Shown in pieces: positions 29,251 through 60,667 of a stretch of DNA of 64,000 nt (positions within the stretch are counted from its first letter, which is position 1; the number at the start of each line of letters is the position of its first letter). The DNA lies in the NCBI GenBank assembly GCA_947176505.1, contig CAMWQW010000006.1, positions 1-64,000 of the forward strand. The letters run 5' to 3'. Both the position numbers and the translations under genes were made by a program. The notes below the pieces were generated by a model. The model did not search any database and was not told where the DNA came from. It saw only the letters and a program-made list of their open reading frames with translations. The DNA is from an uncultured Lachnospiraceae bacterium (GTDB lineage Bacteria; Bacillota; Clostridia; Lachnospirales; Lachnospiraceae).

Positions 29251-29341
29251 ATCTTACCCTAAATATGTATGCTGTCAATATCCTTGTATATGTAACTGCA
29301 TTGAACTTTTATATTCTACCACACATCTTAAAAAACTGCAA
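29251..29341 (-). promoter_or_regulatory. two candidate sigma-A promoters in the flgE-flbD spacer (TTGACA-16-TAAGAT near flbD; TTGCAG-17-TGgTAGAAT further upstream)
   Basis: Minus-strand hexamers: rc of 29274-29279 with 29251-29256, and rc of 29336-29341 with 29313-29318. A 208-bp non-coding gap inside an otherwise tightly packed operon. Confidence 0.3.
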
Positions 29342-29428
29342 AAAAAAATTATGGAAATCTCAAATAATAAGTAAATTAAATGAACTACAAAAGAGGAACT
29401 CTCCAAACAAGAAAGTCCCCCTTATTAT

Positions 29429-29442
29429 GCGCCTTACGGCGC
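29429..29442 (-). other. GC hairpin GCGCC-GUAA-GGCGC immediately 3' of the flgE stop (attenuator or RNA-stabiliser candidate, no U-tract)
   Basis: Perfect 5-bp GC stem with a GNRA-type tetraloop, directly downstream of the flgE TAA. Confidence 0.35.
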
Positions 29443-31464
29443 TTATCTCTTCAGATTAACAAGCTCTTCCAGCAACGTATCAGAAGTCGTGATAATACGG
29501 CTGTTTGCTTGGAAACCACGCTGTGTGGTGATCATCGTGGTAAACTCGGAAGACAAATCTACATTACTCATCTCCAGCACACCTGAAGTCATGGAACCGC
29601 CGCTTGCCGTAATGTCCTTGCCGACACCGTCAAACTCACCGGAGTTTTGTGTTGCGGAATATAAGTTATTACCCGCCTTGGCAAGACCTGACGCATTGGC
29701 AAATTCCGCCACCGCTATCTGTCCTAACAATTTCGTCAAGCCATTATCGTAAGAAGCCGTGATTCTGCCGTCCTGCCCAATTTCAATACCAATCAGCTCA
29801 CCAATCTTTCTCCCCTTGCCGGAAGCAGTACTATCCTTGGAACCGGGTGTAAGCTCTAACGTACACTTCTTACCGTTACCGAAATTGTTTACTGATGAAA
29901 AATCAATGTCAACATTACTGAACTGACTCAAATCGATCATCTCACCAGAGATAGAAGATGCAGATGAATTAAATGTGAGCGTAGCCGTATCAATTCCCAC
30001 TCCGCCAATACCAGAGAAATAACCCGTATCATGGTCAAATATCAGTTCCATGCCTCTCGTATGCTCTGTCTCAGTAATCTGCGCCGTTCCGTTCGGAGCA
30101 ATGTATGAAATCTTGTAATCTTTATTACTGGTATCTTCTAAATTATATACATATTTCAAGATATCTTTCTCATCCGCCGGCATCGTTAATTCCAAACCGA
30201 ACGATGAACCCGTACGTATTGCATTCTTGGTCGGAGTAAAATCGGCTTCAAATGTGATTTCCATTTCTCCCGCTTTACCATCCGCCTTCTGTGCCACCGT
30301 AACATTTTTCACGCCCTTTAACGAGTCAAGACTAGACAGATAAGCTGCCATATCCGTTACTTCCGTTCCAAGCGTTGCGCCGTCAGCCGTAGGCTTCTGA
30401 TAATACTTACTAGTCGTCTCATCATAAATCAAATTATACGGCTCCGCCTCCAACTGTTCTTTCGTCAAGGACACTTTACCTTCTACGGTAACTGCATCCG
30501 CAGTACCCGCAGTCACGCTGCCGCCGTCAGCCGGCACTTTCACTGTCACACTGTCACCTGCCGCAACCACCAGCGCATTCTGTTCAAAATTCTGCAGGAT
30601 CTCACTAAACGCCAACGTTACGTTAAACTTACTCGTACCGTCAAACGTTGCATCCTTATTAGCAGCATATGCAGAAGTTTTCGTCGGATCTGAGTTAGAA
30701 CCAAACGTCGCAATCTGGTTAATGTTCTCCAAACCATATTTCTTAACTAAGGATGTCCCCGTAGCATCCAGAATATCATCTAACTGCACACGGAATCTGT
30801 CATCGTCACCAATGCCATGAAAACTCATCTTAACCGTATATGCATAACCTTGCGCATCAAAAATTGTGAAGGTACGAATCGCACCCGCATCACTGTTGAT
30901 TGTCGGATCGGTCTTATCCAGAATACCCGATACGTATGCTTTGGTCGTCGCTTCCGGCGGAGCCGTCAGATTATCCGTATTCATGACCTGAAGCGCCGAC
31001 ACTACATCAGATCTGATGTCGCCTGTCTGCGGATCTACCTGCCATCCCATAACTGTATAACCAAGACTCGCCATAACCAGATTACCTGCGCCGTCCACGG
31101 TAAAAGAACCGTCTCTTGTGAAGAAATTCTGGGAGCCGTCGCTTACGACGAAGAAAGAATCTCCCTCAATCATAACATCCCACGGATTGTTAGTAGACTG
31201 TGCGGAACCCTGCTGCGTGATTGCAGTAGAGATTGCGCCGGTCTTAGAACCAAGACCAATCTGTCTGGGATTTATACCGCCTCGTCCGGTATTTGCATTC
31301 GCACCGGAAGCTGCCTGTGTTGTTTGGTATAACAAATCGTTGAATACCATGTTCTGTGACTTATATGCTGTTGTGTTAACGTTCGCGATATTGTTACCGA
31401 TAACGTCCATTCTGGTCTGGTGCGTCTTAAGACCTGCTACACCAGAGAATAATGATCTCATCAT
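29443..31464 (-). CDS. flgE: flagellar hook protein FlgE, long form with an inserted domain
   Basis: 673 aa; N-terminal MMRSLFSGVAGLKTHQTRMDVIGNNIANVNTTAYK and C-terminal TTQRGFQANSRIITTSDTLLEELVNLKR rod/hook motifs. Confidence 0.9.
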   Translation of the reverse strand: MMRSLFSGVAGLKTHQTRMDVIGNNIANVNTTAYKSQNMVFNDLLYQTTQAASGANANTGRGGINPRQIGLGSKTGAISTAITQQGSAQSTNNPWDVMIEGDSFFVVSDGSQNFFTRDGSFTVDGAGNLVMASLGYTVMGWQVDPQTGDIRSDVVSALQVMNTDNLTAPPEATTKAYVSGILDKTDPTINSDAGAIRTFTIFDAQGYAYTVKMSFHGIGDDDRFRVQLDDILDATGTSLVKKYGLENINQIATFGSNSDPTKTSAYAANKDATFDGTSKFNVTLAFSEILQNFEQNALVVAAGDSVTVKVPADGGSVTAGTADAVTVEGKVSLTKEQLEAEPYNLIYDETTSKYYQKPTADGATLGTEVTDMAAYLSSLDSLKGVKNVTVAQKADGKAGEMEITFEADFTPTKNAIRTGSSFGLELTMPADEKDILKYVYNLEDTSNKDYKISYIAPNGTAQITETEHTRGMELIFDHDTGYFSGIGGVGIDTATLTFNSSASSISGEMIDLSQFSNVDIDFSSVNNFGNGKKCTLELTPGSKDSTASGKGRKIGELIGIEIGQDGRITASYDNGLTKLLGQIAVAEFANASGLAKAGNNLYSATQNSGEFDGVGKDITASGGSMTSGVLEMSNVDLSSEFTTMITTQRGFQANSRIITTSDTLLEELVNLKR

Positions 31465-31578
31465 AGTGATATGACCTCCTTAAATCTGTGTCGAAACCGT
31501 TCGGGACAACTGTCTAAACGGCAGTCATCCCATCGCCCCATCCGTCGTTCCGGGACGTAAGCCTCCTTTAAGGTCCGG

Positions 31579-31983
31579 CTATATAATTACGGCTCCGTCA
31601 ATATTTGTAAATACATTTTCATCGGTTTCTGTCTGATCCATAGCCGTGATAACCGTCTGATTCGGCACATTCACGATAAACGCCAGTGAATCGACGATAA
31701 CCAACGATTCGTTGATTCCCTTCGCACCCGCTTTAGCTGCTCCCATGTTCAGGCGTTCAACCTGTTCCTTGGTCAATTCAATATTTCGGTCAACCAGACG
31801 GTTCGCCGCATGCTTTGAAAACCTTACCTCTCCGTCCGTCTGAATATCTACCGTCTTACCCGATAAGATATCCTGAAAACTCGGTCCGTTCTGCTTTAAT
31901 GCACCCGCCTGCTGTCTGCCTGCATTTAAATATTGATCCTGCAGCTGTTCTATGGAAAGGAACTGATTACCTTGAATCTTCAT
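31579..31983 (-). CDS. small flagellar operon protein (TIGR02530 flg_new-like) between flgD and flgE
   Basis: Start MKIQGNQF after AGGAGG, moved from 32037. About 134 aa. Position and size match the Clostridial flgD-X-flgE gene. Confidence 0.5.
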   Translation of the reverse strand: MKIQGNQFLSIEQLQDQYLNAGRQQAGALKQNGPSFQDILSGKTVDIQTDGEVRFSKHAANRLVDRNIELTKEQVERLNMGAAKAGAKGINESLVIVDSLAFIVNVPNQTVITAMDQTETDENVFTNIDGAVII

Positions 31984-32064
31984 ATTAACTCTCCTCCTTG
32001 AGATGACTGCTACCGCCTCCGGCGATGATACTTTCACAGTTCCTTCTGTGTCGTCATTTTCAGA

Positions 32065-32757
32065 TTACTTCGTATCGGAACCTTCACCTGAATCATCATC
32101 AGGGTCATTGCCATCTTCATTAGGAATAATGTCTTTCATTCTCTGGATATAAGTCTTAGCGCCCTCGATATAGTCATCCGTCAAGAAACTTAACTGATAC
32201 TCATCCATGCTGTTAAGAATCTCCTCCAGTTTCTCCACATTGTCTCTGTCCGCAATTGACAGCATACCAATCTCTGGAAGTTTCTTGTAAATATTCAAGA
32301 AGTCTGCCGCCTTAGCATATCCTTCCAGATATTTCTTATCCGCCACTTTATCCAGATCATCCATGGAATATAATTCTCCGGCGATTGAAAGATACGCCTT
32401 ATTATTCTCATACACAACGAAATCTACATTGCCCTGTACCTGAGTTGTTTTACCTGTGCTGTCAGTAACTTTCATAAGTACCGTCTGACCTACTAGCGAT
32501 GACGCTCTGGAAAGTTCCAATGTTGCGCTCATGTTCTGCATCTGCTCCAATGAGGAGAATGTCGCGAACTGAGAAATGTACTCTGTGTTAGAAGTCGGCT
32601 CCAATGGATCCTGATATTTCATCTGCGCTACTAAAAGCTGCAAAAATGCATCTTTATCCATTCCGGAATTTGCCTTCTTAATATTTTCCTTGGCAAGAGA
32701 TGCTGCTGTCTGACTCTCGACAAATTTACCGTCTTGTACTGCCTGTACTGCTCCCAT
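32065..32757 (-). CDS. flgD: hook capping protein FlgD
   Basis: 230 aa; FLQLLVAQMKYQDPLEPTSNTEYISQFATFSSLEQMQNM is the FlgD N-terminal motif; Tudor/FlgD-Ig part follows. Confidence 0.85.
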   Translation of the reverse strand: MGAVQAVQDGKFVESQTAASLAKENIKKANSGMDKDAFLQLLVAQMKYQDPLEPTSNTEYISQFATFSSLEQMQNMSATLELSRASSLVGQTVLMKVTDSTGKTTQVQGNVDFVVYENNKAYLSIAGELYSMDDLDKVADKKYLEGYAKAADFLNIYKKLPEIGMLSIADRDNVEKLEEILNSMDEYQLSFLTDDYIEGAKTYIQRMKDIIPNEDGNDPDDDSGEGSDTK

Positions 32758-32773
32758 ATAATTACTCCTCTCT

Positions 32774-34258
32774 TTATACTGTGTAATCTACAGTGTTACC
32801 GTTTGCTTTCATCATCTCCACTGCAATACGCTCAGAATCTTCCATCTCGGAAAGCTCATCTTCTTCGTCAATTTCATCCAGATTAATCTTCCTCGTACTC
32901 TTAGCGGATTTGCCTTGTTTCTGATCCGTATTCGCATTATCCTGCGAAAACTGCTGACCATATTCATGACTGGCAACCGTGACTTCCACTGCATCAACTT
33001 TAATTCCCTGCTCTTCAAATTGTTCCTTAAGCTGAATAAGCTGTGTCTCAATCACTGCGCGGACCGCTTCGTTCTGCGTAGTAAACTGTGCCGTAATTGC
33101 ACCGTCTTTTGATGCAATCTGTACATTTACCGTACCCAAGCTGGCTGGGTGAAGTTGTAACTCCATCTGCTGTGTATCAGCCTTCAGATTGATTCGCATG
33201 TAATCCATAATCTGGTTCATGATATCTTCCGTCTGCATTGACTGATATCCCGCGCTTACGGGAGCCGGTGTCTCAACCACCTCTATCGGCTTATCAGGTG
33301 TCTGTAACAAAGGATTTCCTGCCGCTTGATCCGCCGCATTTCCTTCTCCTCTGCCACTGTCCGCTGAAGCATCTTTAGTCTGCATTCTGCGTGTGTCCTG
33401 TAAATCCGCCTTAGAAGTGTCCGTCACTTCTTCCTGAACGCTCTTATTGCCGCTTGCATCATCCACAGTCACTTTCACTTGAACCGTCTCGCCATCTTTC
33501 TGAACAGACACCGTGTAATCCTTCATACCTTCCAGATCTGCCCCCGGCATATCCTGTACAAGCGCTGCATCCAGTATGTCTGATTCCCCATTCTCAGAAA
33601 TCATCTGTTCTACTAATGCGTTAAGCTCTTCTTCGCTAAGTCCCAATTCCTCCTGCAGGCTCGCAAGGCTTTCTTCCACTACCGCAAATAAATTCTGCAG
33701 ATTACCATACAGCGTTTCGTTCGTCACAAGCGAAAGTTCATCGGTACTGCCCGATATCTGAAGTAAAAGCTGTCTCAGATTATCCACATCGAACAATTCA
33801 ACCGCCGTAAGCCCCAACACTGCCATGGCTTCTTCTACCTCTTCCGGTGTCACATCCATCTCATCAGCGATGTCCTGCACCAGTTCCTCGGCTGCTTTCT
33901 CCACTTCTTCTGTGCTGCCGTCTGACTTTGCCGCTTCATCGGTGTGCTGAACGGTTTTATCTCCGCCCCGCTGCATCGCATCTTCGGTCTTAGTCGAATC
34001 ATTCGCCGTATGCTGCTCGGTATTTTGTACCGCAGTGTCTTTTTTGGCTGTGCTCACGGCTGTGTTTACCGATGCCGCAACAGAAGTGTTTCCGGCTGCA
34101 CCTGCATGAAGACTCTTGAGTGAGTCGTTCACTTTCGTCATAACCTTGTCGAAGCTGCCCTTTACGAGCTCTTCCTGCTTTGTTCCTGTCTGCTCAGTCT
34201 GAACTGCTGCCTGACCAGCCTTTAAATTAAACAAAGCATTCACATTGTTTACAGTCAT
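32774..34258 (-). CDS. fliK: hook-length control protein FliK
   Basis: 494 aa; a low-complexity acidic middle and a C-terminal Flg_hook domain (LQLHPASLGTVNVQIASKDGAITAQFTTQNEAVRAVIETQLIQLKEQFEEQGI). Confidence 0.8.
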   Translation of the reverse strand: MTVNNVNALFNLKAGQAAVQTEQTGTKQEELVKGSFDKVMTKVNDSLKSLHAGAAGNTSVAASVNTAVSTAKKDTAVQNTEQHTANDSTKTEDAMQRGGDKTVQHTDEAAKSDGSTEEVEKAAEELVQDIADEMDVTPEEVEEAMAVLGLTAVELFDVDNLRQLLLQISGSTDELSLVTNETLYGNLQNLFAVVEESLASLQEELGLSEEELNALVEQMISENGESDILDAALVQDMPGADLEGMKDYTVSVQKDGETVQVKVTVDDASGNKSVQEEVTDTSKADLQDTRRMQTKDASADSGRGEGNAADQAAGNPLLQTPDKPIEVVETPAPVSAGYQSMQTEDIMNQIMDYMRINLKADTQQMELQLHPASLGTVNVQIASKDGAITAQFTTQNEAVRAVIETQLIQLKEQFEEQGIKVDAVEVTVASHEYGQQFSQDNANTDQKQGKSAKSTRKINLDEIDEEDELSEMEDSERIAVEMMKANGNTVDYTV

Positions 34259-34363
34259 ACTTTTTCCTCCTTTCTTTAATTTTCAATGTTCTATGCCTTC
34301 CGGCATGAATTATATATAATGGATGATAGAGCGCACCTTAGACACACTCCGCCATCTCAATAT

Positions 34364-34391
34364 ATATCGGCTTAAATACCCGATTCCTTTA
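34364..34391 (-). promoter_or_regulatory. sigma-28 (SigD/FliA)-type promoter: TAAA-N16-GCCGATAT, about 105 nt upstream of fliK
   Basis: Minus strand reads ctacTAAAggaatcgggtatttaaGCCGATATatattgag; GCCGATAT is rc of plus 34364-34371 and TAAA is rc of 34388-34391. It sits in the 150-bp gap between the ylxF-like gene and fliK. Confidence 0.55.
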
Positions 34392-34409
34392 GTAGGCAGC
34401 CACCATTAA

Positions 34410-35285
34410 TCATGAATCAGGATCCATGATTCTTGTCAATCTGGCTGCGGTTTCTGAATCCATAACGCCTAATATTTTACCGCGGTCCTCGGCACTCATC
34501 TGATACAAAATCTTAGCAGCCAGATCAAGGTCATCCGTCATACTCTCGAAGATTGCCGCCGCTTCCTTAGGCTTCATCTCGGAGTAAGCCTGCGCATAAT
34601 CCTGTACTTCCTTGCTTACTTCTGTTTGTTCGACTACTTGTTTGTACAAATATTCCGCCATGGCGGGATCCATACTCTCATAATATTTCTGATATGCTTC
34701 CGCCCCCGGTCCGTTTTCAGCGTAAACCACTTCTTCGTAAAACTCAGTCTTGATTCTTTCAAACTCTACCTGTGCATCCTCAAAAGTCTGCAATCTATCT
34801 ATTTCGGCGCGAAGTTGATCCAGTTCTTCCGAATCTGTGTTGCTGGCTGTCTGCGCTCTCTCAAGCTCAAGCTCAAGCTCCGTGATATAATCCACGGCTT
34901 CCCGTAAGCTGGTATACCCGCCGTACGCCTCTTCGTCGTCCGTTGTTACCACCGCATCTGACGGAAGGATTTTATTGATGACCGGAACGTCTTTCAGTAC
35001 CGGTGCAAGCACACCCGAACCAAAACCGCCCACGTCCAATTTAATCAACAGACACAGAATTGCAAGCCAGATAATAACAATAACAATCGTTACCAAAGCA
35101 ACGGACACACCACCTGCATCCTCATCCTCAGCCAATTGTGCTTCCTGTGCGGAAATCTCCTTGGCGCGCTGCTTAGCTTCCTTTTTCTGCGCTTTCTGAT
35201 CGTCTTTTATCTTTTTACGCTCTTCCTTTAATCTCTTTTTTTCTGCCTTGGTATCCACCTCGGCATTCAAAAGTTCGTCAGCCAT
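34410..35285 (-). CDS. YlxF/MotE-like flagellar protein (basic N-terminus, one TM, MgtE-N-like C-terminal domain)
   Basis: 291 aa, between fliJ and fliK as B. subtilis ylxF; C-terminal MKPKEAAAIFESMTDDLDLAAKILYQMSAEDRGKILGVMDSETAARLTRIM. Confidence 0.55.
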   Translation of the reverse strand: MADELLNAEVDTKAEKKRLKEERKKIKDDQKAQKKEAKQRAKEISAQEAQLAEDEDAGGVSVALVTIVIVIIWLAILCLLIKLDVGGFGSGVLAPVLKDVPVINKILPSDAVVTTDDEEAYGGYTSLREAVDYITELELELERAQTASNTDSEELDQLRAEIDRLQTFEDAQVEFERIKTEFYEEVVYAENGPGAEAYQKYYESMDPAMAEYLYKQVVEQTEVSKEVQDYAQAYSEMKPKEAAAIFESMTDDLDLAAKILYQMSAEDRGKILGVMDSETAARLTRIMDPDS

Positions 35286-35287: not shown

Positions 35288-35740
35288 TTACTCCCCTTTT
35301 CCACGCTGTCCGTAAGTATAACTGGTCAGCTCATCTACCGCTTTACCTTCTGCGGCATTCTCTTCTTGTATAAACTGCTCTAAGGCTTTCTCTTTCAGCC
35401 GTTCGTGCATCTTACGCTCCTGCATGACTTCCTGCAGTTTCAGCCTTGCCGCTTCCACAACATTCTGTGCCAATGCGACTTGCTCTCTCTGTTCCTCTAT
35501 CATCGCATCCATGATCAACATGGCATTTCTATTATCTTTCAAATCATTTACGTGCAGTACATCGCTGCGCATCTTCCTGCCTTCTTCAAGATAGGCTTCC
35601 TTCCTGTCAATCAGCTCCTGCAGTCTTTCTTCTTCTTCCATGAGCTTCATCTGCGCTCTGCCAAGCTCCATTTTGGCCTGCGTTTCTAACTGATACTGGA
35701 TATTCAAAATGCTCTGCATTCTGTATGTAAATTTCGCCAT
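35288..35740 (-). CDS. fliJ: flagellar export chaperone-like FliJ
   Basis: 150 aa all-coiled-coil; MAKFTYRMQSILNIQYQLETQAK; position after fliI. Confidence 0.75.
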   Translation of the reverse strand: MAKFTYRMQSILNIQYQLETQAKMELGRAQMKLMEEEERLQELIDRKEAYLEEGRKMRSDVLHVNDLKDNRNAMLIMDAMIEEQREQVALAQNVVEAARLKLQEVMQERKMHERLKEKALEQFIQEENAAEGKAVDELTSYTYGQRGKGE

Positions 35741-35755: not shown

Positions 35756-37057
35756 TTATTCCGCAAAAAGCTCCCGCAGCATATCTACTGCCTGCTCATA
35801 GTCGAATTTATCATTCACATCCTGCATCAAAAACTCATTCACCGCATCAATCTTGGCTATGGCATAGTCAATCTTCGGATTACTGCCGCTCTTGTAAGCA
35901 CCGATATTGATCAAGTCCTCCGCTTCATTGTGAGTCGCGAGTACATTTTTAAGCTTTCCAGCAAGTCCTTTATGTTCTTTATCAACAATCTGCGACATAC
36001 ATCTCGAGATGCTCTGCAGCACATCGATTGCCGGATAATGGTTCTGGTGCGCCAGTTTACGATTCAGCACAATATGCCCGTCTAAGATACTTCTTGCCGT
36101 ATCCGTAATAGGCTCATTCATATCATCGCCGTCCACCAAGACTGTATATAACCCTGTGATAGAACCTACCGCAGCGCACCCGGCTCTCTCCAAAAGTTTC
36201 GGCATCTCTGAATATACACTCGGAGGGTATCCTCTGGACACCGGCGGTTCTCCGCTCGCCAGCCCTATTTCTCTCTGAGCCATGGAAAAACGCGTCAGTG
36301 AATCCATCATAAGCAGGACATCTTTCCCCTGATCCCTGAAATATTCTGCAATGGCAGTCGCCGTTTTCGCAGCCTTATTCCTCTCCAGAGCCGCCTTGTC
36401 GGAAGTAGCAACCACCACTACCGAACGCTTCATGCCTTCCTCGCCCAAATCTCTTTCTATAAATTCACGTACTTCCCTGCCACGCTCACCAATCAATGCA
36501 ATCACATTGATATCCGCCTTCGTATTGCGTGCAAACATACCCATCAAAGTAGATTTCCCTACTCCGGAACCGGCAAAAATGCCGATACGTTGTCCCTTAC
36601 CCACAGTCATCAAGCCGTCAATCGCCTTCACACCGAGTGGAAGCACTTCATCAATAATCTTCCTGCTCATCGCATCCGGCGGCTGCGCCTCCACACTATA
36701 AGGAGTTCCGGGCATATACTCGCCGTTAATTCTGCCAAGACCGTCCAGCACCTTACCGAGCAGTTCGTTACTGACAGGCACCGACAGCGGTTCTCCTGTA
36801 TTCTCCACGATACAGCCCAGCCCAATGCCGTCCGTTTTGTCACAAGGCATGAGAAGTGTCTTGCGCTCCTTGAATCCGACCACTTCCGCCATAATCGGGC
36901 TGTACGCATCCTCCGCCGGATATATTTTGCACAAATCTCCCAGCGTAGCCTCCGGACCTGCCGATTCAATTGTCAGACCCACTACATTCTCAACCCGCCC
37001 TTTTTTCTTGAAAAAGGTCTCGTTCGTTATTTTGCTGTATTTAGAAAAATTAATCAT
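35756..37057 (-). CDS. fliI: flagellum-specific ATPase FliI
   Basis: Walker A GIFAGSGVGKSTLMGMFAR and Walker B, F1/T3SS-ATPase family. The start is ambiguous between the TTG at 37069 listed by the track and the ATG at 37057 that I chose. Confidence 0.93.
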   Translation of the reverse strand: MINFSKYSKITNETFFKKKGRVENVVGLTIESAGPEATLGDLCKIYPAEDAYSPIMAEVVGFKERKTLLMPCDKTDGIGLGCIVENTGEPLSVPVSNELLGKVLDGLGRINGEYMPGTPYSVEAQPPDAMSRKIIDEVLPLGVKAIDGLMTVGKGQRIGIFAGSGVGKSTLMGMFARNTKADINVIALIGERGREVREFIERDLGEEGMKRSVVVVATSDKAALERNKAAKTATAIAEYFRDQGKDVLLMMDSLTRFSMAQREIGLASGEPPVSRGYPPSVYSEMPKLLERAGCAAVGSITGLYTVLVDGDDMNEPITDTARSILDGHIVLNRKLAHQNHYPAIDVLQSISRCMSQIVDKEHKGLAGKLKNVLATHNEAEDLINIGAYKSGSNPKIDYAIAKIDAVNEFLMQDVNDKFDYEQAVDMLRELFAE

Positions 37058-37907
37058 TGGATTTTTCAAATGATAACACCCGCAATTTATTAGTTAATTC
37101 TTGCAACTGCGTATCAACGCCGCAGTCAAAAATACCGCCATCCGTCTCAATCAGGCAGTCACCCTGATTGAGGGCAAGGTCTTCAACAATTTCCACTATG
37201 CCTTTACCTGCAGTTGCGCCTTCCGTGAGAGCTTGTTTCTGCATATTGACATAAGGGTAATCGTCCTGAGAAACATGAACAATAAAAGTCCTGCTGCTTT
37301 CCACCCGTCTTAAGGTGGCATCAATCAAATGCACCAGGATATCTCTGTTGTCCGCCAGCTCAATGCCGAAAACATAATTGTAAACCTCTATGATCGTATC
37401 AATGAAACGTGGTTCTAACGTCTCAATCAGCCGGTCATACTCCTCTTCCAACTGTCTTTTCTCACCCTCAAGCGCCAGCTTGATATCATCTACTTCAGAC
37501 ATACCCTTATGAAAGCCAACATCATAACCCTGCTTATTGCCTTCCTCTACCGCTTTCCTGCGCTCCATTTCAATTTCTTGCTTGGCGGCTTCCATCATCT
37601 CGTCAATCTGCGCCTGCGCATCATCTAACATCGCTTGCGCCTGTGCCTTAATCTCTTCGAGGTCGGGACCCTGTACACCCTTCGCGGCTTTAATAATACC
37701 GCCTTCGGTTCCGTCTCCTGCATCGGCAAGAAGAGCATCAATCTCTTCTCCACCCAAGCCGCTTACAAATTCCGCCTCGCCATCCTCTGCTTCATCGTAA
37801 GCGCTCTGTTCATTTGCCTTTGCCCGTCTGATTGCCTCGAGTTCCTCGATTCGACGCTCCATCCGTGCATTGCTGTCAATCACACATTTCTCGTCACTGG
37901 ATACCAT
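37050..37907 (-). CDS. fliH: flagellar export protein FliH
   Basis: A/E-rich coiled N-terminus and a FliH C-terminal domain. The track start is TTG 37973, which overlaps fliG; I chose ATG 37907, 25 nt after the fliG stop. Confidence 0.7.
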   Translation of the reverse strand: MVSSDEKCVIDSNARMERRIEELEAIRRAKANEQSAYDEAEDGEAEFVSGLGGEEIDALLADAGDGTEGGIIKAAKGVQGPDLEEIKAQAQAMLDDAQAQIDEMMEAAKQEIEMERRKAVEEGNKQGYDVGFHKGMSEVDDIKLALEGEKRQLEEEYDRLIETLEPRFIDTIIEVYNYVFGIELADNRDILVHLIDATLRRVESSRTFIVHVSQDDYPYVNMQKQALTEGATAGKGIVEIVEDLALNQGDCLIETDGGIFDCGVDTQLQELTNKLRVLSFEKSND

Positions 37908-41888: not shown

Positions 41889-41916
41889 CATTATAAAGAA
41901 AATATGAAAAAAAACA
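41889..41916 (-). promoter_or_regulatory. sigma-A-type promoter of the fla/che operon (TTGTTT-16-TATAAT) about 30 nt upstream of flgB
   Basis: Minus strand aaccTTGTTTtttttcatattttcttTATAATggaatatgg, then GGGAGGAG RBS and ATG. Confidence 0.45.
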
Positions 41917-41991
41917 AGGTTTTTCGATTCATTTTCACAAATTCCCATTTTTGTGCCACCAACTCATTAACCGAAAAAGCTCGCTCTACGC

Positions 41992-42038
41992 ATAAAAAAA
42001 GGATTTACCTGCCGCTTTCGACTCTGTGTAAATCCTTT
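41992..42038 (-). terminator. rho-independent terminator after codY
   Basis: Perfect 11-bp inverted repeat AAAGGATTTAC...GTAAATCCTTT with a 19-nt loop, followed by U7 on the minus strand. Confidence 0.7.
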
Positions 42039-42055
42039 TACCTAAACTCTCTCCG

Positions 42056-46095: not shown

Positions 46096-49000
46096 TCACT
46101 CGAGCAGGAACAATCTGGCACGATTCAACGATACCGTTCCAAATCCATCTATCTTGTACGTCTTTCCGTTTCTGATAAACTCAGACTCTACGAGAACAAA
46201 GATTCCCGCATTGTTGGTCTTGTCATCCGTAAGGCTCCTAAGTGAAACCACCGGTGCTTTAATCCGGTATACTTTACCCGGAAGTAAACCTATCTGGTCA
46301 GGATTCTGCGGGTCAGCCGCTGTCACAGGTACAAGCTTATTATCTGTAACCGTCCAGATTTCCGAACCGAACGGCGTCGCTTTAACAGTCTTGTCACCGA
46401 TGACAAACTCCTGCGTTCCGGCATCATCCTCATAATAGAAGCTGACCGTCACATTCTTGTTTGCTCCGATATTGCTATCTGCAAACTTAAAGTATACATC
46501 CACGGTATTGTCCAGAATTCCCTCGGTGTCATCGTCCGCCGTGTCTCTCCACTCCTGATCAAAGGGAACGGCAATGCTCTTCATCGGTGCGGAATTCTGC
46601 GCAAATCCGGACACAATAGCGACGTCCGAACCGTGTACGCCCGCACTGTACGCTGCCATAAGCGCATTGACAAAGAACTTACATTCGTCAACTCCCATTG
46701 CATTAGCAGCCACCTCACCTTCGCCGTATATGTATGGATATTCCGACTGCGCCAAATAGACCACATTGCCCTTACTGTAGCAATAATAGTTGTTCCGGGC
46801 GTCTTTTGGTGAAATACCGTATGCCGTATCTCTATTTCCGCCAAAGGTAAGCCATGTTGTTACATAAGCTTCTGTATACTCGCTCTTTAAGTTATTCTCA
46901 AAATTCAGCAGATACTCGGAAGCTCGCAGTCCTGTTCCGTTCTCAGCCATTTTCTCCGCAAAGGCAAAAGAATTGCCCGTCATCTCATACGGATAGTAAA
47001 GGATACTTCCTTCATTAATTTTATCCGCCCTTATTCCCGCACGCCGAGGTTCGTACATGCCCGCATTCAAACCTGCATATCTATGATACTGATTTGCCGC
47101 TCCCAAGCTGACAAAAGTTCTTCCTGAAGACCAGCCTAAACTCTCCGTCGCAAGTCCCGCGCTGTTGCCGCTCTTATTCTGACTGCATACGAGCAGACTC
47201 CTGCCCTCATTGATGTAATCGGCAAACGCCACACTATCCACAGTAACACCGTCATCCACAGTCAACACTACAACATCCCACAGATTCAGGTACTTAGGGT
47301 TCTTAGTTAAATTATCAGCTAATTCTTCAGGCGTAACCGTTTCAAATTCAAAAGCGAGATGTGAACTCGACTCCGCGTCTTTGAGTAATCTTGCCAGCAG
47401 AGAGTCATCCTTCTTCTTGTACATCGCTTCCAAATCAATATAATAGTCGCCTTTACTCTTTGTCACCTGCAGCACACGTATCTCTTCTTCATAAGAGCTG
47501 ACCAGTTCAAAATAGCCCTGCACGCTGGCTCGTCTGTATGGATTGCCACTATCCGTTACTTCTAACTTCCAAGGAATGATACCCGGACCCATACCGTTAA
47601 TCGTGACATCAATGACGTTGCCTTCATTGACATAGGCGCCGAATTCTTCGCCAAGCTCCTCCTCCGTACCGAAGATACCGTCATAATTCATATCTGCATA
47701 TAAGTGCATGGTTGTATCGCCGAAATAATCTTCGCCTCTGTTATTCTTAATCTGAAAAGCAATCCTGCCATGGTATTCTTCATTTTCATCCAAGACAAGC
47801 CGCTGCACCATGCTCACTCCGGAACCGCTGTCCGCGTCCTCGTTCACCAACTCAATCCGCGGCTTGGAAGTCTTCATTCTAGCCATAAATCCGGCATTCG
47901 ACATCGTATCCGATACGGTAAAAATACTGTCCTTATATTCTTCAACGGAAACCGCAGCCAACAGGAAATTATACATCACCGTATCTTCGGCAACATACTT
48001 CGTATTAATCGTATCTCTTGACGCGCCGCGGGCTGTTGCATCCGTGAAAAAGTCATTTTCAACCACGATCGGATATCCTGCCCGAAGATACTCTAACAAA
48101 TCCATCATCTTCTGCGATGTAATATCGTTGCTGTCATAACGGCTGTCACCAGTTACATCACCTAAATGATATACTTTACCATTCAATGACTCATCATTAT
48201 AAACCGCTCTTCTTGGCTGTCTGTCACCCAGATTCAGATTCTGCCCGTCAAGACCGATAAATATCATATCATAAGCGCCGTTAACATCTTCCCACTCACC
48301 GTTAAATTCCACTACGGATTTCACGTCTGTAGAAATGCCAAACTGCTTCTTGCTGTATAGAATCTGTTTACCCGTCTTCATGGCATCTGTCTTCCAGACA
48401 AGCTTTGTGTTCCCTTTGCTGTCCTCCTCTGTATGCAAATCGGAGATGATGGCTCCTGAAGTAAGATCAATGTTCGCCGTAGGCTGCAATTCCAGAATCG
48501 TCAGGTCATCAAATTCTCCCATAATACCTACGGAAAAATTAATGATATACTGAATCGCTCTGGCTTTGCTGACCTCAAAGGAAATTTGGTCATACTCCGC
48601 CAACGTAGTATTTTCTGCTTCAATCGCTGCTAATACATCACTGAATCCGGCTTTTGCCTTGAAATCGTCAAAAAACGCCGCAAAGTCATCACTGACAAGC
48701 ATTTCGTCATTAATGATATATATATTTTGGTTTACATAATTGTATCCATTGTCATCCTTATCCGGATAATCATCAGCCTTTAGCGTCATTTCTATGTTAG
48801 CCATCAAATCCGTGCCCGTATTGATAGCCTCAAAATAACCTGCCAAATCACGCTTTAATAACGCCTGCGCCAATAACTGATAATTCGTTCCGGCATATTT
48901 GTCAGTATCTGTCTCCTCCGCAATCGCGTAATCTACAATAATCGGTGTCAGCTCATCAGCCGCGCGGCTTAAAATTGCACTAACTATCCCCTCTCCCATG

Positions 49001-51516
49001 TCATTCGCGTCACCTAAAGGCGAATCGCCTTCAACATGCTGAATATAGCTGACCGATAATGACGGATTAAGAAACATATTCTGTCCGCTTTCCAGATAGA
49101 TTAAATCTGCCGCATTCACCATATCGGATGTCACTTCATCGGCTCTCACTGTCTGTACTTCAATCTGAAAAGCACTGTTCGCATTATCTCCGCCTGCAAG
49201 CGAACTGAATACATACTGCTTCAACCAGTTATTGGTTGTCTGACATCTGAAATAAACCGGCGCATTATAGACTCCTATCACCAAGTCGCTGTCTTTGCCT
49301 GTCTCAGCCAATTTGTAGTTACCTAAGCCGGGACCGACGTAGATAAATGTCGAATCAGGTGTCAATGTGGTGCTAAACAGACTGATTCCGTCTTCCGTCT
49401 CCGCCATATCTTCATTCAACATATAATCAGTAGACATGATATCATCTGCCCCGGCAAGTTCAGCCAGCTCATCGTCTGTCATCCGCTCAAACGAAAGCAC
49501 ATAGTACATCGTACCGCTCTCTTCGGAAGGCTCCTCTGTCTGAAGTGTATCATCCGTCGATGGCGTATTTGTATCACCTGTCGATGGCGCATTTGTGTCA
49601 TCCGTCGATGGCGTATTTGTGTCATCTGTCGATGGTGCATTTGTGTCATCTGTCGGTGGTGTGCTCGTATCATCCGTTGATGGTGTATTTATATCGGGTG
49701 TTGGCTGTTCTGGTGTCTGCGGCGGTTGTTCTGATGTTGATGTATCATCATCGGGTGTCTCCATATCAGAATCCGTTGGTGTACCTGCCACTAATCTTCT
49801 CCACTCACCTGCAAACACTGTGTTCTTGCTTAGGTCCAACAAAACTGCATCAGACATCACGCCGACGGAACTCGTCTCCGGTGCTGGTTGTGTTGGATCC
49901 GACTGTTCCGGCTGTTCTGGTGTTGGCGGCTGTTCTGGTGTTGGCGGTTGCTCTGGTGTTTCTGTACCGCTTCCCGGATTTTGCCCATCCCCCGGATTTG
50001 CAGGATCAATATCCGGAATAATCGGATTTATATCTGGCTGCTCCGTCGTACCATTATTGTCATTGTTATCATTGTTATCATTATTGTTATTATCATTACT
50101 ACTGTTATTATTATTGCTGTCATTGCTCGAATTGTCTACCCAGTCCTTAAAAACCTCACCGACCGTTCCCTGATAAACGTATCTGTCATCACTTTCATCA
50201 TATGTATAGATATCAAGCTCGTCAGAATAACCATTCGGTCCATTCATTGCATTGATTTCACTACTCACGGAAGCCTTATATGCAGGAGTGCCTTCCGGCA
50301 TGTTAGCATATTCTTCCAATGTTATCGCGTAAAATTTACCATTATCTTCATTATAAAAATAGACGAATCTTCCCAACGCTCCCGGGTTTTTCAAGGTTGA
50401 GCTTTTCTGTCCGCTGGACCAGACGAAATCATATCCTGCCTTGTCTTCTCCATCAACATATTTAAGGTAGGTGCCGCGGAAAATCCCGTCCGCCATATCA
50501 GCTTTATTGTTGCCGGATGTAATCTGATAAGTATCGTCTACCGTCACTTCCTGATTCGGAAACAACAGAGTCCAGCCATCCGCCTCCGCAACATTATGTA
50601 CTCCAAGATAAGCTTCTTTATACTGAATTCCCGGAAATGATGTAAATGAGGACTCCGGCACTAACAAGTTGAGAAAATCTTCTCTGCTCGCATAATGACG
50701 GAAAACCGGATTGCTCTTATATGCCTCTGCCAAATCATCCGCAAACGGAGCTTTTCCGCCTGCCAGATACCCCATTGAACCCGTAGTAAAAGAAAACCTT
50801 GTAGGGCTTGTATCCCCTGAACCTGTCGTACCGCCCGAACCAGCCGGCGCGTCGCAATACACTTCAGATGGAACAATATCCAGTATCTTATACGGATTAT
50901 CTTCTCCATGGTCTTCTACAATCTTGCCGATTCCCGCAAAAGATTCTTTCGCCATGGCTTCCGCCGGACGTAGATGTTGTACAACAGGATAAACTACTAT
51001 CGTCACCGCAAGAAGCATTGCGACACCGGACGCCGCCTTCTTCCACTTTTTTCTCTTTGAACCGAGAATAGGCTTCTCGTTGGTACTCTCAAGCATATAC
51101 TCGGGAATCTCGCCTTTTTTAATCTGTTCAATCTCTTTTTCTTTGGCAAGCGCTTCCCAATCCAGCTCCCCGGGATTAATTTTCCGGTGCTTTATGTGCG
51201 AAATAATCTGTGCTCTGGAAGCGTCCGCGCTCTTGAGCGATACAGATTCGTTCGCCGCCATATCAGATTCTTGCAATAAATCTGGTTTCTCCGGAGTATC
51301 AGACAACTTCGTATAATCGGACTCATTGAGGGTATCAGACGTTTTAGGAGCAGCAGCCTTCTCTGCCCCTTCATCATCTGCACGTTTTCTGCCCTTGTAT
51401 CTCAAGATACCAAAAACTCCCGTCGCCACTGCTGCAATCGAAGCGATTACAATAAGAACAATGTTTCTATTTTGTTTTTTCTTATTCCTTTTTATGCCTC
51501 TTCTCTTCTTTTTCAT
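46096..51516 (-). CDS. giant membrane-anchored protein of unknown function (about 1806 aa) with PT-rich and N/D-rich low-complexity linkers
   Basis: Continuous ORF. Start MKKKRRGIKRNKKK 5 codons inside the track's TTG start. Hydrophobic segments IVLIVIASIAAVATGVFGIL and AASGVAMLLAVTIVVYPVV. Linker runs NNNNSSNDNNNNDNNDNNDNN, PEQPPTPEQPPTPEQPEQ and (T/S)DDTN(A/T)PS x6. Recurring D-hhhh-xx-G-Q-N motifs (DMIFIGLDGQNLNLG, DLIYLESGQNMFLNPS, DVVVLTVDDGVTVDS). Confidence 0.6.
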   Translation of the reverse strand: MKKKRRGIKRNKKKQNRNIVLIVIASIAAVATGVFGILRYKGRKRADDEGAEKAAAPKTSDTLNESDYTKLSDTPEKPDLLQESDMAANESVSLKSADASRAQIISHIKHRKINPGELDWEALAKEKEIEQIKKGEIPEYMLESTNEKPILGSKRKKWKKAASGVAMLLAVTIVVYPVVQHLRPAEAMAKESFAGIGKIVEDHGEDNPYKILDIVPSEVYCDAPAGSGGTTGSGDTSPTRFSFTTGSMGYLAGGKAPFADDLAEAYKSNPVFRHYASREDFLNLLVPESSFTSFPGIQYKEAYLGVHNVAEADGWTLLFPNQEVTVDDTYQITSGNNKADMADGIFRGTYLKYVDGEDKAGYDFVWSSGQKSSTLKNPGALGRFVYFYNEDNGKFYAITLEEYANMPEGTPAYKASVSSEINAMNGPNGYSDELDIYTYDESDDRYVYQGTVGEVFKDWVDNSSNDSNNNNSSNDNNNNDNNDNNDNNGTTEQPDINPIIPDIDPANPGDGQNPGSGTETPEQPPTPEQPPTPEQPEQSDPTQPAPETSSVGVMSDAVLLDLSKNTVFAGEWRRLVAGTPTDSDMETPDDDTSTSEQPPQTPEQPTPDINTPSTDDTSTPPTDDTNAPSTDDTNTPSTDDTNAPSTGDTNTPSTDDTLQTEEPSEESGTMYYVLSFERMTDDELAELAGADDIMSTDYMLNEDMAETEDGISLFSTTLTPDSTFIYVGPGLGNYKLAETGKDSDLVIGVYNAPVYFRCQTTNNWLKQYVFSSLAGGDNANSAFQIEVQTVRADEVTSDMVNAADLIYLESGQNMFLNPSLSVSYIQHVEGDSPLGDANDMGEGIVSAILSRAADELTPIIVDYAIAEETDTDKYAGTNYQLLAQALLKRDLAGYFEAINTGTDLMANIEMTLKADDYPDKDDNGYNYVNQNIYIINDEMLVSDDFAAFFDDFKAKAGFSDVLAAIEAENTTLAEYDQISFEVSKARAIQYIINFSVGIMGEFDDLTILELQPTANIDLTSGAIISDLHTEEDSKGNTKLVWKTDAMKTGKQILYSKKQFGISTDVKSVVEFNGEWEDVNGAYDMIFIGLDGQNLNLGDRQPRRAVYNDESLNGKVYHLGDVTGDSRYDSNDITSQKMMDLLEYLRAGYPIVVENDFFTDATARGASRDTINTKYVAEDTVMYNFLLAAVSVEEYKDSIFTVSDTMSNAGFMARMKTSKPRIELVNEDADSGSGVSMVQRLVLDENEEYHGRIAFQIKNNRGEDYFGDTTMHLYADMNYDGIFGTEEELGEEFGAYVNEGNVIDVTINGMGPGIIPWKLEVTDSGNPYRRASVQGYFELVSSYEEEIRVLQVTKSKGDYYIDLEAMYKKKDDSLLARLLKDAESSSHLAFEFETVTPEELADNLTKNPKYLNLWDVVVLTVDDGVTVDSVAFADYINEGRSLLVCSQNKSGNSAGLATESLGWSSGRTFVSLGAANQYHRYAGLNAGMYEPRRAGIRADKINEGSILYYPYEMTGNSFAFAEKMAENGTGLRASEYLLNFENNLKSEYTEAYVTTWLTFGGNRDTAYGISPKDARNNYYCYSKGNVVYLAQSEYPYIYGEGEVAANAMGVDECKFFVNALMAAYSAGVHGSDVAIVSGFAQNSAPMKSIAVPFDQEWRDTADDDTEGILDNTVDVYFKFADSNIGANKNVTVSFYYEDDAGTQEFVIGDKTVKATPFGSEIWTVTDNKLVPVTAADPQNPDQIGLLPGKVYRIKAPVVSLRSLTDDKTNNAGIFVLVESEFIRNGKTYKIDGFGTVSLNRARLFLLE
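49545..49700 (-). repeat. 24-bp in-frame tandem repeats (about 6 copies) encoding (T/S)DDTN(A/T)PS
   Basis: tcatccgtcgatggcgtatttgtg-type units reiterated with point variants. Confidence 0.8.
49890..50140 (-). repeat. 18-bp repeats encoding PEQPPT x3, and AAT/GAT-rich microsatellite-like repeats encoding the N/D/S run
   Basis: ggctgttctggtgttggc x3 at about 49900-49955; attgttatcattgttatcattattgttattatc at about 50040-50140. Confidence 0.75.
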
Positions 51517-51546
51517 AATTAATCGCCCCAATACTTGCTTAAAAGA

Positions 51547-54500
51547 TTACTGTTTCGTCCACTGTGTTCCGTTAGATGTACAGGTCCATGTGCCATACTC
51601 TACGCCGGAAGTATACCCATTTACTAATTTAAGTGTATAGGTATCAGTACTTGCATCATAAGTATATTCCTTTTTAATGCCTCCCCAAGAATTCTGGGCA
51701 TTCTCCCCATATGTATCCGTTGCAAAGAAGTACTCTGTGACAGATTCACTATAACTGCCCGAAATATTTGGGAATCCGCTCTCAGACGGAAGCGGCGCTT
51801 CCAGCATACACTGACTGCCATTATACGTAAATCCAATGCGTGTACCCCAAATTGCCGTATCAACTCCTGTGTTGCTTCCTGCCTTTGTCCGGTTCCACTT
51901 TGCGCCGTCCCAGCTAAATGTTCCATAGTTATACACAATCTTCTTGCGTGGATTATTGGTCAGAATTTCCCTGATTATCTCTATCGTATATGCACTGCCG
52001 GATTTACTGCATTTCACAATACATTTCTCGATAAGCGCATCGCTGCTGCCATCCTTACTAAAGGATATCAACTGCCAGTTATTGAGCGTACTGTTGTTGT
52101 CAAACGCCCCTATCGGGAAATCTGCATCCGACGGCGTCGGGAAATAAGTCTCATACTGCTTATTATCCTTTGTAAACTCCAGATTCGTCTGAATATTCTC
52201 TATCTTCGTCTCTTCAAGTCCCACTCTGGTCCATTCAAGCTGTCCCATACTTGCTTCATACTTGCCGTAAATATGGGTGATAATCTGTCTACCGTTGATT
52301 TCCATAGATGACAATGTAATCCGGTACTTATCCTGTCCTAAATATTCACACATAACCGTGGCATTATCTATCGTCCCCCGCCACTGTCCATCCTTAGAGT
52401 ACGACGTAAAATTGTATATAATTTCTTGTTTCGTATCACTCCTTAAGTCAAATGGAAATGCTCTGTCCGACGGCACTGGAAAATTTGTCCATCTTTCCTC
52501 TCCGTTCACGTTTGGCAACTGCATATTTAACCCCATGTCAATTCTCAAGTTAATAACACAATCCCACTGCTTATAATAATATGTATCGTAATCTCCGGGC
52601 ACATTCTTATAGATAACATTATCTCCCGTATAAGCTCCTGCTCTGATATCCGGATTATTTGCATAGACAAATCCGGGCACAATATGATACATTCCACACG
52701 CTTCCTGCATCTCCTGCGCATTGCTGTTTGTCAGATTAGTCACCGTCGGATTAGACCCGGGCTGAAATACAATCTTTCCAAAACGATTTTGACCGGTGTT
52801 GTTTCCTTTATCATTATAATTGCCATCTCTGTCCGGCGATATCGGGAGCGCCCCAATTCTTGTTGTTCCGTTACGGTTATCCGCATATTCCTCCGTATCA
52901 TGCGCATACCCATAAACTCTCTTCCACCGACCGTTTTCATCCTCTTTGTACACCGTAAATCTAATGTTGTTAAGGACAGCTTCTCTCAATATGTTGATTG
53001 CACCAGCATCGGCAATCTCAATCATTCCCCCGAGAGGATTATTATTGGGTGTTGATAAAAATGAAAAATGCTCATAGCTTTCTTTCTCATCATTCGGATA
53101 CGTGACCCCATTAATCTTCACAGCTACAGACGGTTGATTCAATACTGCATAATAATATTCATCCGCATCAAACATCGTACCGATATACTTTCCGTTATCG
53201 TCACATTTGTTCAAATATTCTGTTTTAATCTCTTCTTTACTTGCCTCAGTCCTACTCCCTTTTGGTCTTGGATCAAGTACTTGGAAATAAATCTCATAAG
53301 ACTTCCTGTGATCTAATCCGAATGCATCGGGAGAAAAACGCTCGTTTGCGCCCTCTGTAAAATAGACCATTACATAATCATTCTGGCATCCGACTGTCCC
53401 TGCTTCTCTGACACGGACACAGAAAACATAACGAGAATGGTCTGTTTTTAAAGATGTACGCATATAGTCAAAAATTCCCGGGTCATTATCCGTACCGAAC
53501 TTAAGCTCCGATCCGATAAACTTCGCCCCGTTGTCGCCCTCGGTCACTCTGAGGATGAGCGTTCCTGTTACCGCTCCATAGCTCTTACGAAGAGACAAAT
53601 CAGACGTCGCCTCGATTTCAATTTCCTCACCTTTTTTCGCTGTCGATTTTATCTTAACTTCTGCTTCTCCCGTATCAGATGTCACAATCTCAGCAGGTCC
53701 TCTTACAATTCTCCATCTCGTTGCCGCAAGGTCATGATCCTTTGTCTCGTCATCCGTAAGGCAGGAATGCGCTTCACAGGATCTGCCTAACATATATCCC
53801 ACTGCACTACCGTTCACCGTAACCGTACTTCCGGCTTTGATGGTCGTTGACGCACAACTTAAGTCAACGCTGTTCACACGCTTGACATTAACCTGTACCG
53901 TCTTGGCTACCTTATCATTCTGATTGGCATACTCTTCATTTACGCGGGAAACTCTCACCAGAAAACTCTTGCGTGTCTCGTTCGTACCGATAGTTAACTG
54001 CCCGTCAGCCGAAACGGACGACGTCGTTGTTCCGGTATCCACCAGCTCCCACTTAACCGCCTGATCATCAGAATTGGTATCCACCTGCGTCTTGTCTGCA
54101 AGATTAAAGCTGTCCCCCGGCTCTAACACAATATCTCTCACTGTCGTAATCGTGAACTCGTTCGCCTTCTTCATCGGCTCAATATCAATCTTATTGAGTG
54201 CAATCCGGTTACGCACGGTTACATTATTGGAAGTGGTATACTCTTTATTGCCGTTCTGGAATGTCATGGAAATCATGACTACCCTGTTTTCTTCAAACTG
54301 GGAAATATCAATATGTAATTCTTTGACATGCTGCGCGAGAATCGCCCTGTTCGTATCATTAAACACCGGCTCCGGATTTGTATCATCTATCACGGTATCG
54401 CTCGTATTGAAATAAATCGTCTGCGTGTCCTTACTCCACTCGAAACGATAACTGTCATTATCATTATTGCTGCCCTTTTTATTGACTACTACCAATATTT

Positions 54501-54771: not shown

Positions 54772-54875
54772 AGTACTGTGATTCCTTTCTGTCTACTCTG
54801 CCGCCATCTTCATTTTCAACCACACGCTGCACCGGATCATATTTCCGACTGTCTGCAAGCCACCTCTTTCCTATA

Positions 54876-55418
54876 CTACGGTATTGGAAGCAACTCCATC
54901 GTCGTCTTACCGGTCAGTCTCTCCAGATGGATATGATAATTCTTGCTGCCGCCGCGCACATAAATCTCCCACACATTTGTGGCAGTGGCGCCACTGTCCA
55001 AGCTCTCCAGAAACGAGCCTGAGCTTCTGTTAAAATATATCTCCCATGCGTCATCTCTTTGCGGTAAATCATCTCCGCCGTCCGTAGATCCGACCATGCA
55101 CCTTCGCGCCCCGATTTTCTCGGCACCGTTGTTGCCGGTTGTCCAACTGCCGGCTTCCAATGTCTGCAATTCACTGAATACCGTTCCGGTGTCATCTCTG
55201 TAGAGAAGCAGTCTCACATTGCCTCGTCCTGCGCTCATTGTCGCAATCTTACATTCCGAGATGGCACCTATAATGTCATTGGTGCAGGTTCTTGCATTGG
55301 CGCTGAAAACAAGCCCGACAGACAATGCCGCTGTCGTGAGAACCGCCGCTATGATTGCAATGACAATGATTAATTCCACAATAGAAAAACCACTGTTATT
55401 TTTCTCCATCCTGCGCAT
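54876..55418 (-). CDS. minor pilin/pseudopilin (180 aa)
   Basis: MRRMEKNNSG|FSIVELIIVIAIIAAVLTTA prepilin motif. Confidence 0.65.
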   Translation of the reverse strand: MRRMEKNNSGFSIVELIIVIAIIAAVLTTAALSVGLVFSANARTCTNDIIGAISECKIATMSAGRGNVRLLLYRDDTGTVFSELQTLEAGSWTTGNNGAEKIGARRCMVGSTDGGDDLPQRDDAWEIYFNRSSGSFLESLDSGATATNVWEIYVRGGSKNYHIHLERLTGKTTMELLPIP

Positions 55419-55439
55419 CTGACTATATCCTCTCCATTA

Positions 55440-60655: not shown

Positions 60656-60667
60656 GCTCTCATCCCC

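Follow-up and report, generated by a model that had tools for sequence, protein, structure and literature searches.

We identified, within the flagellar gene cluster of the 64-kb stretch of DNA analyzed here (the window), which comes from an uncultured member of the Lachnospiraceae, a sigma-28-type sequence that is likely to be a functional internal promoter, read by the cluster-encoded SigD (sigma-28) and raising the expression of the hook genes once SigD is active. It lies in a gap of 151 bp (34259..34409) between the YlxF/MotE-like gene and fliK. Its conservation in most relatives makes the promoter very probably real; as a type of feature it is ordinary, with a precedent in Bacillus subtilis. 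Read directly, positions 34391..34364 of the minus strand are TAAAGGAATCGGGTATTTAAGCCGATAT, i.e., TAAA-N16-GCCGATAT; because all genes of the region lie on the minus strand, the motif is in the productive orientation. Its parts are the following.

34388..34391, minus strand: -35 element TAAA (within cTAAAGg), read from the sequence
34364..34371, minus strand: -10 element GCCGATAT, the sole exact copy of this octamer in the window
34355..34357, minus strand: predicted transcription start, placed by the usual sigma-28 geometry, 7 to 9 nt downstream of the -10 element

A search of both strands of the window for TAAA-N14-17-GCCGATAT returned this single match, against a chance expectation of 0.06 (the mean of 100 dinucleotide-preserving shuffles, 6 of which contained one match). 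The -10 element has the sigma-28 form GCCGATAA/T with a CGA core, and TAAA lies within the 14 to 17 bp upstream of it that are typical of this class. When a weight matrix was built from relatives alone, the window site scored 27.3 bits, compared with 11.3 for the next-best site in the window and a maximum of 14.5 across 20 shuffles; no other sigma-28-type site was found with this matrix in the 64-kb window, and thus no clade-specific reference promoter was obtained. The preliminary description had placed a TAAA-N16 element with a perfect -10 match at 34364-34391, in a noncoding gap of about 150 bp inside a tightly packed operon, and both observations were borne out, the cluster having few other sizeable gaps. 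A start near 34356 would give fliK a 5' untranslated region of about 98 nt.

The setting of the motif was defined by Pfam and NCBIfam scans. On the minus strand, the cluster order starts with topA, codY, flgB, flgC, fliE, fliF, fliG, fliH, fliI, and fliJ, followed by an MgtE_N protein (the YlxF/MotE equivalent), the 151-bp gap, fliK, flgD, a TIGR02530 flagellar protein (104 bits against a cutoff of 83), and flgE; after flgE come flbD, motA, motB, fliL, fliM, fliY, and cheY and, farther along, flhA, flhF, flhG, and a PilZ protein. The distal end comprises cheB/A/W/C/D, the FliA/WhiG sigma factor, and FapA and, beyond these, rpsB and tsf. The features on which the argument depends are located as follows.

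41890..41917, minus strand: sigma-A-type promoter of flgB, at the start of the cluster, TTGTTT-N16-TATAAT (sequence read)
35756..37069, minus strand: fliI (Pfam/NCBIfam scans)
35288..35740, minus strand: fliJ (Pfam/NCBIfam scans)
34410..35285, minus strand: YlxF/MotE-like open reading frame (MgtE_N)
32774..34258, minus strand: fliK, for hook-length control and heading the proposed hook unit (Pfam Flg_hook, 9.4e-20)
29443..32757, minus strand: flgD, the TIGR02530 protein gene, and flgE (Pfam FlgD, Flagellar_put, and Flg_bbr_C/Flg_bb_rod)
29443..31464, minus strand: flgE itself (Pfam Flg_bbr_C/Flg_bb_rod)
29383..29442, minus strand: two hairpins past the flgE stop codon, the second (29423..29391) terminator-like (fold prediction)
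29251..29342, minus strand: sigma-A-type promoters ahead of flbD-motAB...sigD, TTGCAG-N17-(TG)TAGAAT and TTGACA-N16-TAAGAT
9489..10271, minus strand: FliA/WhiG-family sigma factor, SigD (TIGR02479, 264.6 bits against a cutoff of 189.6)

The sigma factor carries Pfam sigma-70 regions r2, r3, and r4 and, as the SigD of the same cluster, is the presumed reader of the promoter. Two open reading frames inside the flagellar cluster, 10280..10720 (minus strand, 146 amino acids, just upstream of sigD) and 7476..7796 (minus strand, 106 amino acids, after fapA), gave no Pfam or NCBIfam match. At the other end of the cluster, the end of codY (about 42000..42040, minus strand) has a hairpin followed by a T-run, like the codY-fla/che arrangement of B. 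subtilis. Upstream of topA, 46096..63957 on the minus strand is occupied by a type IV pilus-like cluster with PilM and an A24 prepilin peptidase; it encodes several pilins with an N-methyl motif, up to 1,074 amino acids long, and a DUF5057 protein of 1,811 amino acids.

A survey of ylxF-fliK junctions for a conserved motif, which the preliminary description had suggested as a check, was carried out on two sets of sequences. The genome set consisted of 80 Lachnospiraceae loci recovered by a YlxF genome scan (68 to 97% protein identity), and the metagenome set was gathered starting from the most divergent YlxF (that of locus L070) and reached lineages 46 to 67% identical to it; in the YlxF homologue search, none of the best 120 matches fell below 82% identity to the query. 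Across Lachnospiraceae genomes and metagenomes together, the box was present in 83 of 96 distinct junctions. CGATA stands in the ylxF-fliK gap of 78 of the 80 genome loci, mostly as gcCGATATATA, and a -35-like block, CT[T/A][T/A]AG, is found at a fixed distance from it, with an intervening spacer whose sequence varies freely. In the alignment anchored on CGATA, the block reads C (85%), T (93%), T (85%), T (62%) or A (20%), A (85%), and G (57%), and after about 16 variable bases there follow G (68%), C (75%), and CGATAT; the clade consensus is CTTTAG-N15-GCCGATATATA, and the commonest -10 forms are GCCGATATA (36 instances), ACCGATATA (18), GACGATATA (8), and TCCGATATA (7). Two short blocks held at fixed spacing across a free spacer are the pattern expected of a bipartite promoter recognized by one sigma factor. 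A perfect consensus is confined to the window genome and its three nearest relatives, which have CTAAAG at -35; in most relatives, CTTTAG or CTTAAG occupies the position aligned with TAAA.

The box extends to distant lineages. Of the 21 distinct junctions in the metagenome set, 13 contain it; the -35 takes the form TTAAG or TTAAAG and often overlaps the ylxF stop codon. Several of these junctions have no hairpin, and several have nothing else in common with the gap of the window. For 12 of the 13, which were tested by shuffling, no score as high as that observed was seen in 200 shuffles; L128, the remaining one, was recognized after this testing and stands outside the 12. In relatives, no other strong site of this type was found on the coding strand up to 10 kb to either side of the box. 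The weight matrix gave a second match in L110, where fliI meets fliJ, but it lacks a -35-like box and is probably due to chance. In one clade (L070, L078, L079, L087 to L095, and L106), the gap and a TATATA-clamped hairpin are kept and there is no CGATA box, its position being occupied, for instance, by CTAGTATATA; that lineage would thus have lost, or never gained, the sigma-28 promoter, which appears to be dispensable in some lineages.

A published transcription start in another member of the Lachnospiraceae bears on this junction. Capp-Switch mapping of Clostridium phytofermentans ISDg placed an intergenic sense start at NC_010001.1:3299695(-) (PMC5171806, Supplementary Data 1), 196 nt upstream of Cphy_2711, annotated as "flagellar hook-length control protein" (fliK), and within the predicted operon that runs from Cphy_2720 (flgB) to Cphy_2682 (PMC5171806, Supplementary Data 1 and 2). 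The operon has just four intergenic sense starts, this one among them, and it has higher counts (105 and 126 reads) than are found at flgB (PMC5171806). Compared by position rather than by promoter sequence, this start lends indirect support to the promoter reading. The claim that a SigD-type internal promoter precedes fliK-flgD-flgE is therefore well supported, by its conservation across junctions, by the FliA/WhiG gene in the cluster, and by the C. phytofermentans start.

The gap also encodes a structured leader for fliK, and one of its elements shares nucleotides with the promoter. The predicted elements, from the promoter toward fliK, are as follows.

34312..34367, minus strand: AT-clamped RNA hairpin, AUAUAUA ... 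UAUAUAU around a variable inner stem (RNAfold)
34289..34309, minus strand: mini-hairpin AUGCC-GGAA-GGCAU, of the GCC-GNRA-GGC type (fold prediction)
34266..34286, minus strand: TTGAAAA box and extended Shine-Dalgarno sequence (TTGAAAATTAAAGAAAGGAGG), ahead of the fliK ATG at 34258, unique in the window

The 5' arm of the clamped hairpin overlaps the end of the -10 element in the window. The hairpin was found in 74 of 96 junctions, with 16 junctions having the box only and 7 the hairpin only. Its inner stem is wholly different in sequence between lineages and always pairs, within an invariant AUAUAUA/UAUAUAU clamp; when 13 compact versions were made into a covariance model, its matches in 750 kb of sequence were confined to the ylxF-fliK junction. 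In the hairpin alignment, 96.5% of cells pair and compensatory double changes occur in all six inner pairs (63 cells), a level of covariation that none of 500 shuffles reached and that slid controls fell far below. G.U pairs outnumber A.C mismatches by 23 to 7, and the sense strand folds more stably than the antisense strand in 64 of 66 hairpins (-18.2 versus -13.8 kcal/mol); both observations indicate that selection acts on the sense RNA. Pairing is thus maintained by compensatory changes on one strand, as expected of a structured cis-acting RNA. An Rfam search of the gap returned no family, the best match being AdoCbl-II at 19.5 bits against a threshold of 36.5, in the start of the fliK coding sequence.

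In 45 of 66 loci, box and hairpin are merged, the 5' clamp being the ATATATA that follows GCCG, and the inner stem begins 5 to 6 nt past the -10 element. Since the ATATA after CGAT is here the 5' arm of the hairpin, the apparent conservation of the -10 element is partly shared with the RNA structure. In the remaining 21 loci, the complete hairpin lies 10 to 127 nt downstream of a stand-alone GCCGATAT, and conservation of the box is therefore no by-product of the hairpin. In the merged form, a sigma-28 transcript would start at or just inside the stem, in contrast to a read-through RNA, which would contain the clamped hairpin in full. Farther downstream, 47 of 66 relatives have the mini-hairpin, with a GNRA loop in 37 of these; it shows little covariation, being for the most part conserved at the sequence level. 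The TTGAAAATTAAAGAAAGGAGG sequence occurs once in the window (0.00 expected). A TTGAWAA box, 5 to 9 nt upstream of the extended Shine-Dalgarno sequence, was found in 64 of 96 junctions, some of them distant and devoid of the hairpin; it may serve fliK as a translational enhancer or as a site for protein binding. In several relatives (L041, L060, L062, L063, L067, L073, and others), one or two extra GC-rich hairpins lie between the AT-clamped hairpin and the fliK Shine-Dalgarno sequence, lengthening the leader to 150 to 235 nt.

Other functions were considered for these elements. The TATATA after the hairpin was rejected as a sigma-A -10 element, because no fixed distance separates it from any -35-like hexamer (11 to more than 40 nt), and the TTGAAA near the Shine-Dalgarno sequence was rejected as a sigma-A -35 element, because no -10 element stands before the fliK start codon. 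Binding of CsrA to a GGA in the mini-hairpin loop was dismissed as a conserved feature, the loop being GUAA or GAAA in most relatives. That the clamped hairpin is a terminator bypassed by sigma-28 transcripts was likewise unsupported, since the promoter lies upstream of the whole hairpin in the 21 unmerged loci. It is conceivable, and on balance unlikely, that hairpin, GNRA mini-hairpin, and TTGAWAA/Shine-Dalgarno element together form an undescribed cis-regulatory RNA of Lachnospiraceae flagellar clusters. One possibility for its role is a processing or attenuation switch that uncouples the hook-gene mRNA from the basal-body mRNA; in the merged form, sigma-28 transcripts, beginning inside the hairpin, would then escape any effect of the full structure on read-through transcripts.

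The extent of the transcript was considered from the gaps that interrupt the cluster. Three are real: ylxF-fliK (151 bp), TIGR02530-flgE (114 bp), and flgE-flbD (208 bp). Within the gap before flgE (31465..31578, minus strand), the blocks CCGGACCTTwAwGGAGGC and CGGTTTCGACACAGAT..AAGGAGG are kept in relatives, and a C. phytofermentans start has been mapped 70 nt upstream of Cphy_2708 (PMC5171806), a gene that is flgE by gene order; this gap may hold another internal start or an RNA element. Past flgE, the region with the two hairpins folds at -30 kcal/mol (z = -4.85). The second hairpin, 29423..29391, has a 14-bp stem followed by UUUUGUAGUU, an interrupted U-tract that is weaker still in L081 and L084; the stem is retained with altered sequence in L081 to L085, the relatives with 10-kb flanks. 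In the same five relatives, the first of the promoters that follow is conserved as TTGCAG-N17-TGnTA(G/A)AAT plus ATAAAAGTTC. A terminator-like hairpin succeeded by sigma-A-type promoters makes a feed-forward effect on sigD doubtful, and the sigma-28 transcript may largely end after flgE. The simplest reading of this arrangement would be three units, namely, a sigma-A unit flgB-ylxF, a sigma-28 unit fliK-flgD-TIGR02530-flgE, and a sigma-A unit flbD...sigD, with possible read-through at each boundary.

Three other explanations have to be weighed against a promoter that serves the hook unit. The sharing of nucleotides with the hairpin suggests one of them: CGATATATA might be merely the 5' arm of an RNA hairpin in read-through mRNA, concerned with processing, stability, or attenuation, in which case the likeness to sigma-28 would be coincidental and fliK-flgE would be expressed from the flgB promoter only. 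The hairpin is indeed real and under selection at the RNA level, as its covariation (6 of 6 inner pairs, 0 of 500 shuffles) and stabler sense strand attest; its arm overlaps the -10 element in most cases; and one clade keeps it without CGATA. Yet conservation at fixed spacing extends beyond the hairpin, to the GCC that precedes GATAT and to the -35 block, the box stands apart from a separate, complete hairpin in 21 loci, 16 junctions, distant lineages included, have the box without any hairpin, and C. phytofermentans has a primary transcription start upstream of fliK; we regard this explanation as highly unlikely. Even less probable, and in our view extremely so, is that the box is read by another alternative sigma factor or a DNA-binding regulator in place of the cluster's FliA/WhiG protein, or that the match arose by chance. 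In most relatives the -35 sequence, CTTTAG, does depart from the canonical TAAA, and the window yielded no sigma-28-regulated reference promoter of the clade for comparison, but GCCGATAT is the signature sigma-28 -10 element with an almost invariant CGATA, the spacing fits Lachnospiraceae sigma-28 promoters, and the context is flagellar with a FliA/WhiG sigma factor present; a chance match is excluded by the conservation of the box and the expectation of 0.06.

The third alternative accepts the sigma-28 promoter and differs in its reach: transcription would read through the distal cluster and create a positive autoregulatory loop on sigD, with the boost to the hook genes as a side effect. Because sigD lies downstream on the same strand, and the imperfect U-tract makes some read-through likely, this is a possibility to be kept in mind, albeit a doubtful one. 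Against it are the two hairpins past flgE, the second of them strong and of conserved structure, and the conserved sigma-A-type promoters directly after them, which read-through, were it the rule, would make superfluous. For these reasons, the statement in the preliminary description that the promoter boosts everything downstream, including sigD itself, was found to be unsupported.

We suggest the following scheme for the preferred reading, that of a SigD-dependent promoter for the hook unit, in which SigD dependence, the exact start site, termination efficiency, and physiological role are all inferred. Transcription of the cluster would start at the sigma-A-type promoter upstream of flgB and continue through ylxF. 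SigD-containing RNA polymerase would bind cTAAAG-N15-GCCGATAT in the gap and initiate about 8 nt downstream, near 34356. The resulting mRNA would have a leader of about 98 nt, in which the inner stem of the hairpin comes first, at the 5' end or close to it, and then the GNRA hairpin and a strong extended Shine-Dalgarno sequence. This mRNA would encode the FliK ruler, the FlgD cap, the TIGR02530 protein, and the FlgE hook subunit, which are hook proteins needed in many copies or exported. Most transcripts probably end at the terminator-like hairpin past flgE, and transcription of flbD...sigD would be restarted from the sigma-A-type promoters. The net effect would be that, with SigD active, hook-gene expression is raised independently of the upstream basal-body genes. 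That the hook unit has a boundary of its own, a conserved terminator-like hairpin with fresh sigma-A-type promoters after it, counts in favor of the promoter reading. Counting against it are the clade that has no box, the overlap of the -10 conservation with that of the hairpin arm, and two further points. In the classical hierarchy, sigma-28 acts after completion of the hook, and hook genes under its control would be unusual by that standard; in addition, most relatives have CTTTAG at -35, and acceptance of this variant by SigD is putative.

If this reading is correct, the "fla/che operon" of many gut Lachnospiraceae would consist of at least three transcription units and the hook proteins would receive a SigD-dependent boost, which would refine the flagellar gene hierarchies drawn for Clostridia, whose flagellins matter immunologically in the gut. 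Current understanding stands, because internal SigD promoters are known in B. subtilis and have been predicted in Clostridioides difficile. The conserved site provides a precise target for reporter and start site work. Were the leader a switch of the kind outlined above, hook-gene output would depend on the promoter used, and the hairpin is a small, well-defined candidate for RNA-family catalogues.

The leader has partial counterparts in other Firmicutes, whose mRNAs include 5'-proximal stabilizing stem-loops and intraoperon processing sites, as in the aprE and ermC leaders and in cggR-gapA processing. The likeness lies in a stable hairpin at or near a 5' end, at the boundary of genes that need different levels of expression; the invariant AUAUAUA/UAUAUAU clamp of the window hairpin is unusual in this company, and it matches no Rfam family. 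We know of no description of an AT-clamped leader hairpin for B. subtilis. The synteny of the B. subtilis fla/che operon is the same as that in the window, codY-flgB...fliJ-ylxF-fliK-flgD-flgE...sigD...rpsB-tsf, and PMC3865298 gives PD-3, PylxF3, and PsigD as established internal SigD promoters and a sigma-28 spacing of N13-16, within which the N16 of the window falls. PylxF3, like the promoter proposed here, is a SigD promoter inside a long flgB...sigD operon driven mainly by a sigma-A promoter. It is named for ylxF, the neighbor of fliK; judged by the promoter name alone, it probably lies in the same neighborhood as the window motif, and the earlier proposal that the two occupy different junctions is not supported by that name. 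PylxF3 is said to contribute to sigD expression, whereas the terminator-like hairpin and sigma-A-type promoters of the window suggest a self-contained hook unit.

In C. difficile, internal SigD promoters have been predicted upstream of motA and fliQ in the flgB operon (El Meouche 2013, PMC3865298), a transcription start has been mapped at fliQ (Soutourina 2020, PMC7438776), and none has been reported before fliK (PMC3865298, PMC7438776). That species thus likewise has internal promoters of the TAAA-N-CGA type in a clostridial flgB...sigD operon, with "early" genes partly dependent on SigD, but at the motA and fliQ junctions rather than at fliK and with much weaker matches to the consensus. A further reference is the sigma-28 promoter of Lachnospiraceae flagellin genes, TAAA-N16-17-MCGATAa in Butyrivibrio fibrisolvens, with predictions for Roseburia and Eubacterium rectale (Neville 2013, PMC3720852). 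The window promoter comes from the same family and has the same -10 core, with a spacing of N16, or of N17 when counted to CCGATAT (PMC3720852). The flagellin reference has TAAA at -35, in contrast to the CTTTAG or CTTAAG of most relatives of the window, and the flagellin promoters drive late genes, whereas the promoter described here would drive hook genes from inside the early cluster.
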